Shown: positions 4,118-11,085 of the stretch, piece after piece | Layout: each line of letters starts with the position of its first letter | How positions within the stretch are numbered: the stretch's first letter is position 1 | UHGV virus genome: UHGV-0210060 | Length of the DNA: 40,776 nucleotides | Source of the DNA: a virus | Direction: 5' to 3' (one strand) | The notes under the pieces: generated by a model | Database searches by the model: none | Told to the model about the DNA's origin: nothing | Seen by the model: the letters and a program-made list of their open reading frames with translations, nothing else | Translations under genes and position numbers: made by a program

Positions 4118-5998
4118 TTAATACTCCGTCACGTTTTCCTGTCGCCACGCCTCGTCATATTCCGATTTCGGCATATTGGCGATGTAGCTATATGGCGATC
4201 CTGATTCAAGTTGCAGGAACTGGTGCGATTGCTCGTCAAGGAACAACGGGACACCACCTTCCCAACCTTCGCCGTTTCGTTGCTTTTCAAGCATCAAAAC
4301 AGATGCCGGAGATGCCAGTAGCTGTTCGTCCTTCTCTGACATCTTTTCACCACTCTGAACTCTCTGTAACGCTCTCTCGCGAGCCTTGTTACGCCAGATG
4401 ATGAAAAGGTTGTCTGTCAGGTCTGTTATCGCTCCAGAGCCTTTTACGTCCATTTTCCCGGTTGGTTTTTCTTCGCTGTCACCTTTTCGCGAGTGAGTAA
4501 CGAGAATGACGTGGGAGTTTGTTTTGTTTTTGAAATCGCAAATCGAGTCAACAAACGCCTTCTGCCCGTTATAGTCATCGTCGCCTATGCCACATTTCAT
4601 CAGGCTGTCGATGATGAATAACTGGATGCCGTATCGGCGGCGAGCGTAGTCGAATATTTCGATCAGCCTGTCGGCTTTCGCCGTTCCGGTCAGGCCAAAC
4701 ACCCAAAGTCTTTCGTCATAAAATTTAAATGCAGAGTCAATTTCCAGCACTGGCGGCATCTTGCAGCACGTCGCCTGACGGGTAAGGCGCTTAAGGAGAA
4801 TACCAGGCTTCAGCTCAAGTGACGCGATGCACGTCTTCACACCCTGACGCATTGCCTCAAGTGCCATATGCCCGACAACCTCCGTTTTTCCGTGACCGTT
4901 CACACCATTGACCAGCGTCAACTCTGCCTCACGGAACTGGAATTTATCTGCCAGAGATTCCCACGGTGGATTAAACAGATACTGCTGCTTGCCGTAGAAA
5001 GCGTTGATAGTGTCCTGGTAAAACTCTCGCGCACTGTAGAGTTCTTCAGGATCGAAGTAGGATGCCGTGCCGATGTACTGCCAGATTTCATCCTCGGTAA
5101 CACCGTTCATCAGGCATTCGTTGATGTCTTTGTACGGCAGAGTAACAAGACGGCAACGATGTTCACCGAGTCGGCTTGCGATTTCCCTTGCGGCTTCACG
5201 ACCAACATCATCAACGTCCATCGAGATGAATATTTCCTCAAACCTGTCGAGGTTGTGGTACTCAAACTCAATCCACTGTTGCTTAGCGCCTTTCCCTCCA
5301 CCAAACGGCACGGATAACGCCGAGATGCCGTATTGCGCATAGCTCATACAATCAATTTCGCCTTCGCAAAGCACAACCGCCCTCACGCCAGCGTCCAGAG
5401 CCTGCCATCCGAACAGACAAGGTTCGCAATCACCTTCTGCCATAATGACTTTCTTCCCGTCCGGGCGCTCAGTGCTGATTCGCTTGACCTGCAACAACTC
5501 ACCATCGCGTTTGTACGGAAGCACCAGTGCATCAAGTTCTCGTTCTCCCTTCCACACCTTGCCGCTGACAACCTCGTAGCGCTTTACTACTTCTGGCGAT
5601 ATGCCACGCGATTGCAGGTACTCAAGATGGGATTCTGTTCTGGTAACGTAGCGGGCGATTTTCTTGCGATCAGGTCTGGAGAATTTCTTCTCACGTTTGG
5701 CATCGAAATGGTGATCGTCATCCTTGATACCGAGAAAGGCTTTCGCTTCCTGCATAGCCTGATGCAGGTTAATTCCACGACATGCCATCCACAAATCAAG
5801 CATGTCACCGCCGTCTCCCTCAGCGAAATCAGCCCATTTTTTCTTGCCGCTAAGGTTGACCTTAAGGCTGTTTCCCTTGTCACCGTTGACGTTACCGGCA
5901 ACCCACTCATGCCCCTCTTTCTTGCCGTTTGGCAACAGGTGCGGAGCCACCCTGTCAACCTGCGCCCAAAGCAGATCGCTAAGTTCATTTGGCCTCAT
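4118..5998 (-). CDS. bifunctional DNA primase/helicase (Toprim domain + RecA/DnaB-like ATPase)
   Basis: 626 aa; Toprim-like acidic cluster (CEGEIDCMSY ... ISMDVDDVGREAA); Walker A LVNGVNGHGKTE; Walker B LFIIDSLMK; sits where lambda has P. Confidence 0.8.
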   Translation of the reverse strand: MRPNELSDLLWAQVDRVAPHLLPNGKKEGHEWVAGNVNGDKGNSLKVNLSGKKKWADFAEGDGGDMLDLWMACRGINLHQAMQEAKAFLGIKDDDHHFDAKREKKFSRPDRKKIARYVTRTESHLEYLQSRGISPEVVKRYEVVSGKVWKGERELDALVLPYKRDGELLQVKRISTERPDGKKVIMAEGDCEPCLFGWQALDAGVRAVVLCEGEIDCMSYAQYGISALSVPFGGGKGAKQQWIEFEYHNLDRFEEIFISMDVDDVGREAAREIASRLGEHRCRLVTLPYKDINECLMNGVTEDEIWQYIGTASYFDPEELYSAREFYQDTINAFYGKQQYLFNPPWESLADKFQFREAELTLVNGVNGHGKTEVVGHMALEAMRQGVKTCIASLELKPGILLKRLTRQATCCKMPPVLEIDSAFKFYDERLWVFGLTGTAKADRLIEIFDYARRRYGIQLFIIDSLMKCGIGDDDYNGQKAFVDSICDFKNKTNSHVILVTHSRKGDSEEKPTGKMDVKGSGAITDLTDNLFIIWRNKARERALQRVQSGEKMSEKDEQLLASPASVLMLEKQRNGEGWEGGVPLFLDEQSHQFLQLESGSPYSYIANMPKSEYDEAWRQENVTEY

Positions 5999-6966: not shown

Positions 6967-7096
6967 GACCTTTCTCCTTCTGCATCAGCTTCACTTTTTC
7001 CAACTCAGCCCGGAATCGACCAGGCTGCTTGAAGCTGGACAGGAAGCGATCACGTAGTATGTGTTTGTGAATTTTGTCCTGGTAAGGACTGAGTTG
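6959..7096 (-). CDS. small basic ORF (45 aa) between cII and the O-like gene
   Basis: Own translation: [48 protein letters not shown]; stop overlaps O-like ATG; below the ORF-track size cutoff. Confidence 0.4.
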
Positions 7097-7137
7097 TTTT
7101 GTCATAATGACTCCTGTGGATTGATCCAGTAATGACC

Positions 7138-7437
7138 TCAGAATTCCATCTGGATTTGTTCAGAACGCTCGGTCTTGCACACCGGGCGTTTTTTATTGAT
7201 GAGTCCATCAAGCGCATACTTAAAAGCCCTGCTAATCGGACTGATGTCTGATGCCATTCCGAAAGCACACAAGACCGAAGCAATAAACCGCCAGTCGGTA
7301 CGACTGATCTTCGATTCATGACAGCCAATCATCTTTGCCAGACCGCGCTGGGTAAGCGTTGACAGGTTGATGAGTAAATCTGTTTCTGCGCGATCAACAT
7401 CGCGCTGTGATAGTTTGCTGTAACTTGTTTGTTCCAT
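7138..7437 (-). CDS. cII: CII-like transcriptional activator
   Basis: 99 aa; C-terminus [19 protein letters not shown] matches lambda CII ([19 protein letters not shown]); position between cro and replication genes. Confidence 0.8.
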
Positions 7438-7522
7438 TTCTTATGATTTCCAATAGTGAATAGTTAGCTGAAAGGTATGCGTGGAAACGCATGTGGCCTT
7501 GGTTGGTCAGATATTCTGGGAT

Positions 7523-7568
7523 TCGCTTTTCAGCGACGTAGGACGAATGTCCGTTGTTACAAAGAGCG
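7523..7568 (-). promoter_or_regulatory. nutR-like site (boxA + boxB hairpin with GAAA loop)
   Basis: Minus-strand reading: CGCTCTTTGTAACAAC (boxA-like), GGACattcGTCC hairpin, then TCGCT-GAAA-AGCGA; lies between cro stop and cII. Confidence 0.55.
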
Positions 7569-7575
7569 TGGTTAC

Positions 7576-7809
7576 TTATGCAGCTGATGCTCTACGCGAT
7601 ACGAACACCAGGTTTTCCTTTTTCACAGGTTTATAAGCCGTGAAATTACGAGTAGCTTCCTCGATTGCATTCGCTTTATCAGGGGAAGCTCTTCGAAATC
7701 CATATGCAATCTGGTCAAGATAGCCAACTGAAGTTTTCGCTAATGCGGCGAGTCGCTTCCATTCCTCACTAGAAGCCTCTTTTCGCCAGCGTAGTAGTTC
7801 ATTACTCAT
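7576..7809 (-). CDS. cro: Cro-like repressor
   Basis: 77 aa; divergent from cI across an operator-rich intergenic region; first gene of the early-right operon. Family assignment is positional. Confidence 0.65.
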   Translation of the reverse strand: MSNELLRWRKEASSEEWKRLAALAKTSVGYLDQIAYGFRRASPDKANAIEEATRNFTAYKPVKKENLVFVSRRASAA

Positions 7810-7922
7810 TAGTGCCTCCGTTTATCATACAGAATAACTTTACCATTTTGATAAATCAAGCGCAATGTAAATTTATCATATTGCGTATTTATCCATTTGC
7901 TAAATAGAGGGAAAATTGTGAG
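7810..7922. promoter_or_regulatory. OR region with divergent PR / PRM and repeated TTTATC / GATAAA half-sites
   Basis: ccgTTTATCatacagaataactttaccattttGATAAAtcaagcgcaatgtaaaTTTATCatattgcgtaTTTATCc; four half-sites in 113 bp between divergent cro and cI starts. Confidence 0.6.
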
Positions 7923-8627
7923 ATGGAAAACAAAGATATTCGCAAGTCGAATCTGGCGTTTTTGCTAGATGAGCATAAAAAAATCGCGGGTAACACTAAT
8001 GCAAGCTTTGCCGATAAGCTTGGGGTTAGCCCTTCTCAACTCACGCAAGTCTCCGGTGAAAAAAGCACGCGAAACATAGGGGATAAACTAGCAAGAAAAT
8101 TTGAAGCCGCACTTGGGTTACCTAATGGGTGGCTTGATTTGGTACATGATGTAACACCAATTGCATCATGCTCAGATTCTTTAACTTTTGTCGGTCAGGT
8201 AAGAAAAGGGTTAGTGCGCGTGGTTGGTGAGGCAATTCTTGGTGTTGATGGTGCCATCGAGATGACCGAAGAGCGCGATGGGTGGCTCAAAATTTATAGC
8301 GATGATCCAGATGCCTTTGGTCTTCGTGTGAAAGGAGACAGCATGTGGCCCAGAATAAAATCAGGAGAATATGTGCTCATTGAGCCTAACACCAAAGTAT
8401 TCCCGGGTGATGAGGTGTTTGTCAGAACCATCGAAGGACACAACATGATCAAGATTCTTGGCTATGACAGAGATGGAGAATACCAGTTTACAAGCATCAA
8501 CCAGGACCACAGACCAATAACGTTGCCTTATCATCAAGTAGCAAAGGTGGAGTATGTGGCTGGTATTCTGAAGCAGTCACGCCATCTGGATGACATCGAG
8601 GCAAGGGAGTGGCTGAAAAGTTCGTGA
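7923..8627 (+). CDS. cI: CI-type repressor (HTH + S24 LexA-like autopeptidase domain)
   Basis: 234 aa; C-terminal GDSMWPRIKSGEYVLIEP ... GDEVFVRT ... MIKIL fits the S24 Ser/Lys fold; divergent from cro. Confidence 0.85.
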   Translation: MENKDIRKSNLAFLLDEHKKIAGNTNASFADKLGVSPSQLTQVSGEKSTRNIGDKLARKFEAALGLPNGWLDLVHDVTPIASCSDSLTFVGQVRKGLVRVVGEAILGVDGAIEMTEERDGWLKIYSDDPDAFGLRVKGDSMWPRIKSGEYVLIEPNTKVFPGDEVFVRTIEGHNMIKILGYDRDGEYQFTSINQDHRPITLPYHQVAKVEYVAGILKQSRHLDDIEAREWLKSS

Positions 8628-8744
8628 CTTTATCGTCACATAGCTGATAGCCAGTGGCCTGAAGAGACGTTTGGGTGATATATGTGAAATGCATATATTG
8701 ATATAAATGCAGCAATATCAATTAGTTAAAAGGTTATATTTTTA

Positions 8745-9125
8745 ATGAATGATCTTGATAAGAAAAAGTACGACCAAGTTATTGATTCTGTGAACTTCGC
8801 CCTTAGATCGTTGTCAGAGTTATTCGAAGCCCATGGAATGCATGGGATGTATGATCTAACGAATCCAAGCCTTGATGAGCTAAAATTAGTGTTTACAAGG
8901 ATGAAAAACGGTGTTGACTCTATTGCTCAAAGCTTTGAGCACATGGTAGAGACAGCAAAGGATATGGATGCCGCAAGTGCAAGCATAAATGTTATGAACA
9001 TCAAACAAGGATTGATGTATGCTGAATCACTATTGCTTGCTGTAGAGAAATTAGACTATGATAAATGTGTGGAAGCAAATACGCAGATAAAAACCCACGA
9101 TCTTCCACCAACCCAATGGCCTTAA
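8745..9125 (+). CDS. hypothetical protein (126 aa) in rex position downstream of cI
   Basis: AT-rich ORF; candidate promoter TTGGGT-17-TATATT at 8671..8699; no recognisable motif. Confidence 0.55.
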   Translation: MNDLDKKKYDQVIDSVNFALRSLSELFEAHGMHGMYDLTNPSLDELKLVFTRMKNGVDSIAQSFEHMVETAKDMDAASASINVMNIKQGLMYAESLLLAVEKLDYDKCVEANTQIKTHDLPPTQWP

Positions 9126-9194
9126 TAGTAAATCAAGATTTCATATAGTCTATTTGAACTAGGCTAGTACCATAAAATAAACCGAGGAAACGCA

Positions 9195-9296
9195 ATGAAA
9201 ACCATGTCCACTCTGCACAAAGATGCAATGACCCTGAGAGCTCTCATCAACGAGATTCTGGCTCGCTCGTCAGCACACACCAAAAAAGCCGCATAA
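9195..9296 (+). CDS. small ORF (33 aa) upstream of terminator
   Basis: Own translation MKTMSTLHKDAMTLRALINEILARSSAHTKKAA; preceded by GAGGAAA; followed 11 nt later by an intrinsic terminator. Confidence 0.3.
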   Translation: MKTMSTLHKDAMTLRALINEILARSSAHTKKAA

Positions 9297-9307
9297 TGCC
9301 TACATAA

Positions 9308-9333
9308 CCCGGCCTCAGCGCCGGGTTTTCTTT
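9308..9333 (+). terminator. intrinsic terminator ending the cI-side transcript (tIMM-like)
   Basis: CCCGGC-ctcagc-GCCGGG followed by TTTTCTTT. Confidence 0.7.
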
Positions 9334-9469
9334 GCCTAACGTCCCCCAAAAAACGCATAACCAATTGTATTTATTGAAAAATTGATAGATACAACTTGCT
9401 AAACCACGAAATTCTGATCTCCCTCAAATCTCTTTATTTATCCTGTCGAATTCCTGCAACAAAATAAAA

Positions 9470-9560
9470 CACCATAAAAATCAATATCATATTTGAAAAT
9501 CAAAAGAATTTATCATTTTGCTATTGTCATTAATTTATCATTCCGATAAAGTTTACCCAT
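9470..9560 (+). promoter_or_regulatory. OL / PL region
   Basis: aaTTTATCAttttgctattgtcattaaTTTATCAttccGATAAAgt: same half-sites as OR; candidate promoter TTGTCA-17-TAAAGT reading toward N. Confidence 0.5.
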
Positions 9561-9598
9561 CAGCAGGACGCTGGAAGCCAAACGGAACAGACTGGCAT

Positions 9599-9644
9599 GC
9601 TCTTTAAACAACGTCGAACACTCGACTACGTGGCTGAAAAGCCA
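9599..9644 (+). promoter_or_regulatory. nutL-like site (boxA + boxB hairpin with GAAA loop)
   Basis: GCTCTTTAAACAAC, GTCGAacacTCGAC hairpin, then TGGCT-GAAA-AGCCA; same three-part layout as the nutR candidate. Confidence 0.55.
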
Positions 9645-9667
9645 GCTCACCCAACCACATAAGCTGT

Positions 9668-9717
9668 GGGATGCAATGCCGAAGCAACCGCCTCAGGAGT
9701 AGCTTCGGGATTGCATC
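9668..9717 (+). other. long hairpin in the N leader (16-bp stem with one mismatch, 16-nt loop)
   Basis: GGGATGCAATGCCGAAGC ...16 nt... GCTTCGGGATTGCATC, ending 25 nt before the N start codon. Confidence 0.6.
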
Positions 9718-9742
9718 ACCAGAGTTTATTCGGGAGGAATCT

Positions 9743-10015
9743 ATGTCCAGAAAAACAGAATTTAAAGGCACCGCAGCTTCTCGCCGTAGAGCTCGTCGTG
9801 CAAATCTGCAAAGTCAGGAGGCGATCAGCTCCGACAAGCTACACAGGCCAACCCCTTCACGAGTGGTCTTGCAATGCAAGCGCAAACCAGCAATGAGAGC
9901 AGAAGTAATAACACTGACAACGTTGACCAGAAAATATGAAGGCTCAACTTGTCTTCCAAACGTAGCTATTTACGCGGCAGGCTACCGGAAATCAAAACAA
10001 CTGACGGCGAGGTAA
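9743..10015 (+). CDS. N: N-type antiterminator (arginine-rich motif)
   Basis: GGGAGG RBS; MSRKTEFKGTAASRRRARRANLQ arginine-rich N-terminus; C-terminus AIYAAGYRKSKQLTAR resembles P22 gp24 (ALYAAGHRKSKQITAR). Confidence 0.8.
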   Translation: MSRKTEFKGTAASRRRARRANLQSQEAISSDKLHRPTPSRVVLQCKRKPAMRAEVITLTTLTRKYEGSTCLPNVAIYAAGYRKSKQLTAR

Positions 10016-10017
10016 TT

Positions 10018-10380
10018 ATGGGTCAGGAAGAAAAATATGAGCTTAAAAAGCTCATTGAAGAAGACGCCATAGAAGAAATTGCAGCATTAACAACAGCTAT
10101 AAAGAATATTAGGTATGCGCTAAATACGCTTATCTCCTCATGCGACAAAAATAGCAGGGAATTTTTGATACTTGGAGCAGCTCTAGGAATAGTTGATGCG
10201 GCAACGCTTCACCTAATTACTCATGACGATATTCTTATTGAGCCGTATGAAACATTACTGCTTGTCAGGCAAAAAATGGCTGATGCCGCAGCAAATGGAG
10301 ACCTTCAACTTTACATCGACTTAAGGAAAGTATTAAGGCGAATGGTCAGAACTGAAGGAGATATCCCCCTGACAAAATAA
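10018..10380 (+). CDS. hypothetical protein (120 aa)
   Basis: ORF from ATG 10018 directly after N; predicted soluble; no motif recognised. Confidence 0.5.
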   Translation: MGQEEKYELKKLIEEDAIEEIAALTTAIKNIRYALNTLISSCDKNSREFLILGAALGIVDAATLHLITHDDILIEPYETLLLVRQKMADAAANGDLQLYIDLRKVLRRMVRTEGDIPLTK

Positions 10381-10570
10381 GGGGGTGAGAGGATTTTACT
10401 ATTTTTCTCGCTGTAGGGGTACACGAGAACCACCGAGCCTGATGTGGTTAAAAGACAGGCATACGAATAAACACTGCACTGTGTATTCATTCCAACGAGT
10501 GAATACACGGAGCAATGTCGCTCGTAACTAAACAGGAGCCGACTTGTTCTGATTATTGGAAATCTTCTTT

Positions 10571-10594
10571 GCCCTCCAGTGTGAGGGCTTTTTT
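10571..10594 (+). terminator. intrinsic terminator (tL1-like) preceded by a 9-bp-stem hairpin
   Basis: GCCCTC-cagtgt-GAGGGC + TTTTTT; upstream hairpin GTGTATTCA...TGAATACAC at 10479..10507. Confidence 0.7.
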
Positions 10595-10660
10595 ATATGC
10601 ATACCAATAACGCTTCACTCGAGGCGTTTTCGTTATGCAATCAAACAGAAGGAGCATCCT

Positions 10661-10831
10661 ATGCAACAGTTCGCTATTGCAGGGGCGGCATCGGTTCGCC
10701 CTTTCAACCCGATTTTATCGGTACAGCATTCACGAAAAAATATTTTAACCGGAGCAGACTTTAAACAACCAAGAATGAAAAGTTTGCTCGAAAAGCTTTG
10801 GGATATTTTGAAACAACAAGGCCGTCCATGA
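10661..10831 (+). CDS. cIII: CIII-like protein (FtsH inhibitor family)
   Basis: From ATG 10661 (RBS AAGGAG): MQQFAIAGAAS...KSLLEKLWDILKQQGRP compares to lambda CIII MQYAIAG...ESLLERI...KRLIDILNQPG. Confidence 0.65.
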   Translation: MQQFAIAGAASVRPFNPILSVQHSRKNILTGADFKQPRMKSLLEKLWDILKQQGRP

Positions 10832-10986
10832 ATTTTACAGATAACTGGTCAGACGAAGAATTCATTCGTCAGATGAAAGAATTAATCGGTAACGAAGGAG
10901 ATATTCATGTCACTTGCAACCACAGTGAAGGAGAGCAAGTTACAGAGACGCATGTACACGCAGAAAGCTCTCTGGTATCGCCATAA
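10828..10986 (+). CDS. small ORF (52 aa); Kil-like by position only
   Basis: ATG overlaps cIII stop (ATGA); acidic small protein; function not readable from sequence. Confidence 0.35.
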   Translation: MNFTDNWSDEEFIRQMKELIGNEGDIHVTCNHSEGEQVTETHVHAESSLVSP

Positions 10987-11085
10987 TGGCGACCGCGAAG
11001 GAATGCGGGTATGCCTTAATTTGTCCCGAGTCGAAGTATTAAATCAGCGTTATTTCCTTGGGCCGTGTCCATTCTGAGGTGAATT

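Follow-up and report, generated by a model that had tools for sequence, protein, structure and literature searches.

A two-gene cassette at the rex position of lambdoid prophages pairs a predicted helical-bundle protein with a basic microprotein

What takes the place of rexA–rexB when a lambdoid prophage carries something else between its repressor gene and its left operator? The question matters because cargo of the cI–N interval—RexAB, BstA, a toxin–antitoxin pair—has repeatedly proved to be phage-defence or addiction machinery. It is raised here by the UHGV virus genome UHGV-0210060, a stretch of 40,776 nucleotides (nt) that we call the window. On its + strand, sequence reading together with a listing of open reading frames (ORFs) over positions 7400–10400 gives the order cI, ORF126, ORF33 and an intrinsic terminator, ahead of the left operator and promoter (OL/PL). 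A first-pass annotation of this DNA had described the two ORFs, of 126 and 33 amino acids (aa), as an accessory cassette in the rex position. Its features—cI, both ORFs, the terminator and OL/PL—are all present, and it remains to be asked how exactly the cassette fits the slot, whether both ORFs are genes, and what the pair might do.

The fit can be judged from the junctions. Positions 8648–8679, behind a cI allele of 234 aa that differs from that of lambda, match the 3'-terminal 31 nt of lambda cI and one nucleotide beyond (blastn, 93.75% identity) and read CAG TGG CCT GAA GAG ACG TTT GGG TGA, that is, QWPEETFG and a stop. Such a lambda cI remnant behind a non-lambda cI is, going by the alignment, a recombination scar and marks the left junction. 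At the right junction, positions 9304–9421 carry lambda sequence from the rexB stop codon through t_imm, with 87.4% identity over 119 nt and, in a second blastn search, 91.5% over 93 nt. This flank holds the counterpart of lambda t_imm (9306–9335, + strand), whose stem of 9306–9313 and 9320–9327 is followed by TTTTCTTTG and whose hairpin AACCCGGCctcagcGCCGGGTTTTCTTTGCCT recurs unchanged in lambda just behind rexB. The phage record CL707 annotates a "terminator" under the match to the same flank. The intrinsic terminator that had been proposed to close the cassette was thereby confirmed by the terminator scan as well as by its identity to t_imm.

Prophages with a lambda-type cI delimit the insert from both sides. 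The E. coli prophage at locus L015, which bears a lambda-type cI and right operator (OR), is 97.7% identical to lambda over 835 nt. In prophages of this kind, the homology to lambda ends at the cI stop codon and restarts at the rexB stop codon, with the cassette in between. Hence, the cassette proper comprises 8680–9303—624 nt, which stand in for the 1,397 nt that carry rexA–rexB in lambda. For E. coli prophages with other cI alleles, homology to the window starts at 8648/8649. The cassette can thus be described, from these alignments, as a precise allelic replacement of rexA–rexB that reaches from the cI stop codon to t_imm, and the rex position claimed for it earlier is borne out at both edges.

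The slot accepts other cargo as well. The Shiga toxin (Stx) phage AU5Stx1 shares the cI allele, the scar and t_imm with the window but carries an unrelated filler of ~340 nt, so the same flanks are found around rexAB (lambda), around this filler or around the ORF126–ORF33 cassette. The slot therefore behaves as a place where cargo is exchanged between conserved flanks, in line with the published description of the cI–N interval as a hotspot of mosaic diversity, which houses rexAB and bstA (PMC8585504) and whose cargo shares the highly transcribed repressor promoter (PMC8585504, PMC11077077). To this known hotspot, the cassette adds a new type of cargo—a cleanly bounded two-gene unit without a relative of known function.

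Two further observations concern the left edge of the slot. The QWPEETFG remnant also follows a non-lambda cI at L041 (~4760–4870), in two tandem copies, and at L062 (1551–1579); together with those of the window and AU5Stx1, these remnants look like footprints of repeated recombination at this edge. In one group of distant lambdoid contigs, represented by L050, an additional ORF of 113 aa and unknown function (4357–4698) lies between cI and the cassette, and the slot is therefore able to hold stacked cargo.

Whether both ORFs are genes is less self-evident for the smaller one. A 33-codon ORF is by itself unremarkable, such ORFs being common by chance, and the RefSeq annotation lacks ORF33. 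In the window, ORF126 (8745–9125, + strand) is followed by an intercistronic spacer (9126–9194), in which a Shine–Dalgarno sequence GAGG (9184–9187) precedes ORF33 (9195–9296, + strand) by 7 nt. Relatives of ORF126 from 100% down to 28% identity were examined in E. coli, an Enterobacterales metagenome-assembled genome, Pectobacterium, Klebsiella, Pantoea, Xenorhabdus and Aeromonas—the last comprising phage AsXd-1 and related viral contigs—as well as in two groups of lambdoid viral contigs. At every locus for which downstream DNA was available, an ORF of 33–45 aa with a Shine–Dalgarno sequence lies 25–84 nt 3' of the ORF126 homologue. The two products are of opposite charge in all of the 11 pairs examined: the larger one is acidic, with an isoelectric point (pI) of 4.8 in the window and of 4.5–5.5 in the family (net charge -5 to -11), and the microprotein is basic, with a pI of 10.4 in the window and of 9.2–10.4 in its family (net charge +1.5 to +5.5).

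Selection on the protein level is visible for both partners. A profile search with the microprotein collected 19 clusters, all of 33–38 aa barring those in which the start is miscalled or the frame is shifted, and exactly 33 codons are kept in six diverged orthologues at 50–73% DNA identity. Differences among ORF33 sequences distribute over codon positions 1:2:3 as 207:129:300, and the proportion of nonsynonymous differences (pN, 0.17–0.40) stays below that of synonymous ones (pS, 0.53–1.0). Since conservation on the protein level extends over 24 distinct variants, ORF33 is more than a chance ORF. For ORF126, nonsynonymous divergence (dN) is 0.11–0.22 with synonymous sites saturated. Judged by these substitution patterns and the constant linkage, both genes are real and form a co-inherited pair under purifying selection.

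ORF126 itself is known to databases by number only: it is identical to RefSeq WP_021539111.1, annotated as "hypothetical protein", and falls into phrog_16322 (E = 8e-89), listed under "unknown function". The family comprises 23 clusters at 90% identity among 5.8 billion proteins, or 18 representatives at 50% among 1.84 billion, and all members are stand-alone proteins of 110–134 aa. An AlphaFold2 model built on a 29-sequence alignment (predicted local distance difference test score, pLDDT, 90.1; predicted template modelling score, pTM, 0.82) shows helices at residues 3–36, 43–71, 74–101 and 105–117 and a short conserved tail that ends in Trp. ORF126 is hence modelled as an acidic, soluble four-helix bundle; no membrane segment is predicted, the top 19-residue Kyte–Doolittle average being 0.81. 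The most conserved positions—G34, P41, N85 and L96—sit in the motifs F..hG[MI].G[ML]...[ND]PS and N[IV][KR]QG[LI].[YF]AE.

Searches for relatives of known function were negative throughout. ORF126 has no match above the curated cut-off in Pfam or NCBIfam, with sub-threshold matches to DUF7373_C in 10 of 29 family members; for ORF126 and ORF33 alike, PADLOC-DB v2 yields zero families at E <= 1. A sequence-profile search of the PDB gave no match to ORF126, and fold searches of the PDB and BFVD returned generic helical bundles only. A search of the literature by accession, PHROG number and peptide strings came up empty, and the protein is not listed in the DefensePredictor supplements. The statement of the first-pass annotation that neither protein carries an assignable motif hence stands, phrog_16322 being the only family reached, and the hidden Markov model and structure searches that it had suggested gave no homology of ORF126 to a characterised housekeeping or structural family.

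The microprotein (MKTMSTLHKDAMTLRALINEILARSSAHTKKAA in the window, ending in K-A-A) is built from three parts. An N-terminal pattern, M-x-x-[LM]-x-x-[LM]-[HY]-x-[DS]-[AS]-[ML]-x-[LM]-[RKE]-x-[LI]-[IM]-x-[ED]-[IL], leads into a hydrophilic linker, variable in both length and sequence, which in turn leads into a fixed C-terminus: KAA in 21, KVA in two and RAA in one of the 24 distinct variants. The 4–10 residues preceding this K/R-A/V-A end vary in sequence as well as in length. No transmembrane helix is found in the microprotein (top 19-residue Kyte–Doolittle average 0.38, negative mean hydrophobicity), unlike in small membrane peptides of the type I toxin kind such as Hok, Ldr or TisB; Pfam and PHROGs give no recognisable domain, DNA-binding domains included. 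An amphipathic helix lacks statistical support as well, the hydrophobic moment not exceeding that of shuffled sequences, and we therefore speak only of a heptad-like hydrophobic stripe.

A terminal Ala-Ala with its free carboxylate (Ala-Ala-COO-) is present in 22 of the 24 variants, with Val-Ala in the other two. This ending is the key ClpX determinant of the ssrA tag, and other cellular proteins that end in Ala-Ala are ClpXP substrates (PMC7652416); the described classes of C-terminal ClpX motifs are LAA and RRKKAI (PMC7857536). The ...KKAA end of ORF33 resembles the ssrA (...LAA) and MuA (...RRKKAI) degrons in placing basic residues before a small hydrophobic C-terminus, yet the microproteins bear Lys or Arg before Ala-Ala where ssrA has Leu. 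We take this resemblance to Ala-Ala degrons as a lead and not as a test, as the tail might just as well serve to touch ORF126 or another partner. In any case, a conserved 33-aa microprotein that standard annotation has missed is added to the cargo of the hotspot, and its invariant degron-like tail offers a testable handle.

The pair travels as a unit. In E. coli, the cassette is found at a coverage of at least 80% in 32 of 5,426 complete genomes (~0.6%), and an identical ORF126 fills the rex slot of prophages whose cI alleles encode 231, 234 or 237 aa. In more distant relatives of the cassette, the repressor ahead of this slot measures 225, 227, 236, 237, 241 or 248 aa, so that at least eight cI alleles (225, 227, 231, 234, 236, 237, 241 and 248 aa) are associated with the cassette. 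One E. coli assembly, GCA_050196535.1, bears two prophages (L014 and L015) with cI proteins of 231 and 237 aa and an identical ORF126 in each rex slot; carriage of the cassette is hence no bar to the co-residence of two carriers. Outside the rex slot, the cassette lies downstream of mnt in the P22-like immI region of a Pectobacterium prophage, the place of sieA on the P22 map. In Klebsiella, it is found at a prophage end, with umuDC, an invertase and tail-fibre genes as neighbours, and in HK97-like phages of Aeromonas after a DinI-like gene, near tail-fibre genes. These mnt-downstream, prophage-end and DinI-adjacent sites are accessory slots, the first two being of the kind expressed in lysogens. 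In such non-rex contexts, SOS-linked accessory genes (dinI, umuDC) recur beside the cassette; in AsXd-1, a LexA-box-like CTGTATATTCAAACAG (L002 ~4340–4360) precedes the DinI-like gene upstream of it.

The family is restricted to prophages of Enterobacterales and Aeromonas. Not a single copy was detected by tblastn on 72,556 plasmids, AsXd-1 is the only carrier among 50,697 phage records, and a scan of genome contigs returned a single locus. The cassette is present or absent between conserved flanks, ends in a terminator and differs—if modestly—in base composition from its surroundings; by these features it is a mobile two-gene accessory unit, or "moron", with the exception that a promoter of its own is only a candidate in this copy. 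Two apparent natural knock-outs, P0050 with a frameshifted ORF33 and P0023 with a "truncated" ORF126, had to be discarded: the former assembly is full of homopolymer indels, and in the latter the gene is complete, its start having been called at an internal codon. As artefacts of sequencing and gene calling, they are uninformative on which partner is dispensable.

How would such a unit be expressed? The scan found no + strand terminator between cI and ORF126, and read-through from the cI promoters is therefore possible. Of the signals described earlier, several stand in part only. The promoter ascribed to ORF126 itself, TTGGGT-17-TATATT, is present as a sequence, with a candidate -10 TATATT (8694–8699) in the cassette leader (8680–8744), but it is weak: it scores below the threshold of the promoter scan, and its -35 TTGGGT (8671–8676) coincides with the closing codons of the lambda cI remnant (TTT GGG TGA). 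Promoter-like sites in the cassette region show no excess over shuffled sequence. The inverted repeats exist as an 8-bp pair, ATTGATAT/ATATCAAT (8697–8704 / 8715–8722), yet they do not flank ORF126, as both arms lie upstream in the leader. The cassette is indeed richer in AT than cI, albeit modestly, with a GC content of 0.37–0.40 vs ~0.45–0.46. A promoter-like site in the spacer (9122–9149), considered for ORF33 by analogy to pLIT—which drives rexB in lambda—was rejected, being not conserved in a scan that overall equals its shuffles. A conserved palindromic operator was not found upstream of the pair.

In non-rex contexts, the pair is preceded by a conserved non-coding element, AAAGTTTGT(N6-7)TTTGCCGATTTTA, which lies 79–195 nt upstream of the ORF126 homologues of L002 (~4794–4821), L004 (~606–633), L009 (~4922–4949), L043 and L044 and spans Aeromonas phages to Pantoea. 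This element may be the native promoter of the cassette or a regulator-binding site. It is absent from the rex-slot copies, the window included, which fits a dependence on the cI promoters there. Between the large and the small gene, five orthologues carry a GC-rich hairpin (L041 5385–5456, L009 5379–5450, L006 5379–5462, L004 1063–1133, L005 5385–5455), followed in three of them by a U-run, as in a terminator. The hairpin in the spacer of the window is weak (-5.4 kcal/mol, z = 0.5). The pattern suggests that expression of the microprotein might be regulated or attenuated in some versions of the cassette. Downstream of ORF33, a similar hairpin and T-run recur in the window, L002, L004, L005, L006, L009 and L041.

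What, then, could the pair be for? Arguing from position, we tentatively favour—as a possible rather than a probable assignment—an exclusion or abortive-infection switch that is co-expressed with the repressor and gated by turnover of the microprotein. In lysogens, the cassette would be transcribed together with cI from the maintenance promoter, since no terminator follows cI, its own promoter is weak, t_imm closes the unit, and the rex slot of lambda is transcribed with cI from PRM (PMC11077077). The products of ORF126 and ORF33 would then form a complex, as their consistently opposite charge and strict co-inheritance suggest. By its Ala-Ala tail, the microprotein might be a ClpXP substrate, whose level would depend on continued synthesis. 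In the least certain and most speculative step, this turnover would gate the activity of the bundle protein: an infecting phage that perturbs expression or proteolysis of the host or the prophage might prompt the module to block phage growth. Such a module would functionally stand in for RexAB without any kinship to it.

The comparison with rexA–rexB illustrates both sides of this statement. The two systems share the slot and its junctions, two co-directional genes and the terminator, and ORF33 is the promoter-distal gene just before t_imm, as is rexB. In contrast, hhalign gives the cassette a probability of 0.29% with RexA, a 279-aa RdgC-like DNA-binding protein, and of 0.10% with RexB, an inner-membrane protein with four transmembrane segments. 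The top 19-residue Kyte–Doolittle average of RexB is 2.39, far from the values of ORF126 and ORF33, both of which are predicted to be soluble, and the cassette products are much smaller, encoded in under half the length. The cassette hence holds the place of RexAB without being a member of its family. A second precedent is BstA of BTP1 and other prophages, whose linkage to numerous repressors is conserved (PMC8585504), and the cassette is likewise tied to many repressors. BstA, however, is one large protein accompanied by a self-immunity element encoded in DNA, and neither ORF126 nor ORF33 resembles it, judged by the lack of matches in PADLOC and Pfam.

In favour of a repressor-linked exclusion switch, we count the junction mapping, the many cI alleles, the accessory slots, the conservation of the pair down to 28% identity, the purifying selection on both genes, the charge, the tail and the record of the hotspot as a home of abortive-infection systems (RexAB and BstA). 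Several points weigh against it. PADLOC, Pfam and NCBIfam reveal no homology to defence, toxin or antitoxin families, the fold of ORF126 is generic, and no enzymatic or membrane effector is recognisable in either product. The family is very small, confined to prophages and missing from plasmids, and a tiny prophage-only family is unusual for widespread defence or toxin–antitoxin systems. Moreover, the terminator-like hairpin between the genes of several orthologues would leave the microprotein scarcer than its partner, and it would therefore fit poorly as a protective antitoxin. If the cassette does encode a defence system or a protease-directed switch, it would be among the smallest known and would offer a tractable comparison with the poorly understood Rex system. 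A more far-reaching version of the exclusion switch seems unlikely to us: ORF126–ORF33 as a previously unrecognised prophage immunity module, whose tail serves as a protease-read "timer" or a ClpXP plug that gates a soluble bundle effector, replacing both reported activities of RexAB, exclusion and ClpXP interference.

Among the alternatives, the best-surviving one, which we hold to be somewhat unlikely, turns the cassette inward: it would modulate the lysogeny of its own phage or the proteolysis of the host rather than exclude other phages. ORF33, alone or held by ORF126, might then act as a decoy or stalling substrate of ClpXP, or the pair might tune the cI/Cro switch. Activities of this sort, apart from exclusion, are documented for the genes replaced: RexB is reported to hold back the degradation of lambda O, Phd and MazE that depends on ClpX and ClpA, and RexA to bias the bistable CI/Cro switch (PMC11077077). 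The likeness of the invariant K-A/V-A end to ClpX determinants and the rexB-like place of ORF33 before t_imm point the same way, as do the neighbours found elsewhere—cI, mnt/arc/ant, umuDC and the DinI-like gene—which are linked to lysogeny or the SOS response. However, these neighbours may merely mark where accessory genes gather, and the cassette is also found in late-region slots distant from the immunity switch. A degron-bearing peptide of 33 aa would furthermore be consumed fast, and inhibition of ClpXP is only supposed.

A toxin–antitoxin module that by addiction would keep the immunity region or the prophage from being lost, with no primary anti-phage role, is quite unlikely, although it has a precedent. 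In the lambdoid prophage CP-933P, the addictive pair paaA2–parE2 is co-transcribed with the CI-like repressor PaaR2, and one of its partners is a short, unstructured or helical neutraliser (PMC8630535). The cassette is comparably a small two-gene module downstream of a lambdoid repressor, with adjacent co-directional genes of opposite charge, of which one bears a degron-like tail, and the two genes stay together as they move from one context to another. Beyond that, the likeness ends: there is no homology to ParE or PaaA2, and the small partner, of no more than 33 aa, is encoded 3' of the larger one. Held against type II systems, the pair shows no known toxin family or fold, no DNA-binding antitoxin—the microprotein lacks such a domain—and no spread on plasmids, and the internal hairpins should reduce expression of the very partner that would have to be labile. 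Homology to TomB/Hha (YmoB–YmoA) was rejected as well, with hhalign probabilities of 0.72% and 1.55%.

Less likely still is a factor of lysogenic conversion, by which the cassette would alter the physiology of the host—stress tolerance, division or regulation—for instance through binding of a host protein by the bundle and without a link to phage competition. Accessory genes expressed in lysogens often serve the fitness of the host, a generic helical bundle is suited to protein binding, and the limitation of the family to Enterobacterales and Aeromonas prophages would agree with such a role; yet neither protein shows a secretion signal, a membrane segment or similarity to a known effector, and the preference for a repressor-adjacent slot across many cI alleles better matches known defence cargo. 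Finally, that ORF33 is no gene at all and 9126–9335 a 3' untranslated region, a small RNA or a chance ORF before the terminator is considered excluded: its absence from the RefSeq annotation and the frequency of such short ORFs are outweighed by a conserved protein with a Shine–Dalgarno sequence in every orthologue checked at 50–73% DNA identity, by the constant 33 codons, by the third-position bias with pN far below pS, and by the lack of any Rfam match. Repeat I3, which would pair the region around the ORF33 start with the distant tail of the terminator, is not conserved in orthologues and is therefore taken as chance.

The surroundings of the cassette are those of a lambdoid immunity region in reversed orientation, with an O-like gene and a primase–helicase further left. 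The repressor gene (7923–8627, + strand) matches Peptidase_S24 (E = 3.6e-16), weakly HTH_3, and phrog_4, transcriptional repressor. Divergent from it lies cro (7576–7809, - strand), followed by cII (7138–7437, - strand; Phage_CII, E = 9e-34). A sub-threshold Rfam match to the Salmonella small RNA STnc310 overlaps the start of cI (7915–7970, + strand), reaches 22.6 bits where the gathering score is 40 (E = 0.56) and is most likely due to chance; it is the only match to an RNA family over 7000–11000.

To the right of the cassette, the promoter scan places a PL-like promoter TTGTCA-17-TAAAGT among operator-like repeats (9524–9552, + strand), and N follows at 9743–10015 (+ strand; Pfam N_peptide, E = 8e-32). 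Directly 3' of N lies an ORF of 120 aa (10018–10380, + strand), which falls into phrog_7374 of unknown function (E = 1.4e-79), has no match in Pfam, NCBIfam or PADLOC and is another uncharacterised accessory gene of the early-left operon; as a paralogue of ORF126 it was rejected, the two being unrelated in comparison. Between PL and N, a candidate nutL (9598–9626, + strand) consists of a boxA-like TGCTCTTTAA (9598–9607) and a hairpin with a 5-bp stem, GTCGAACACTCGAC (9613–9626).

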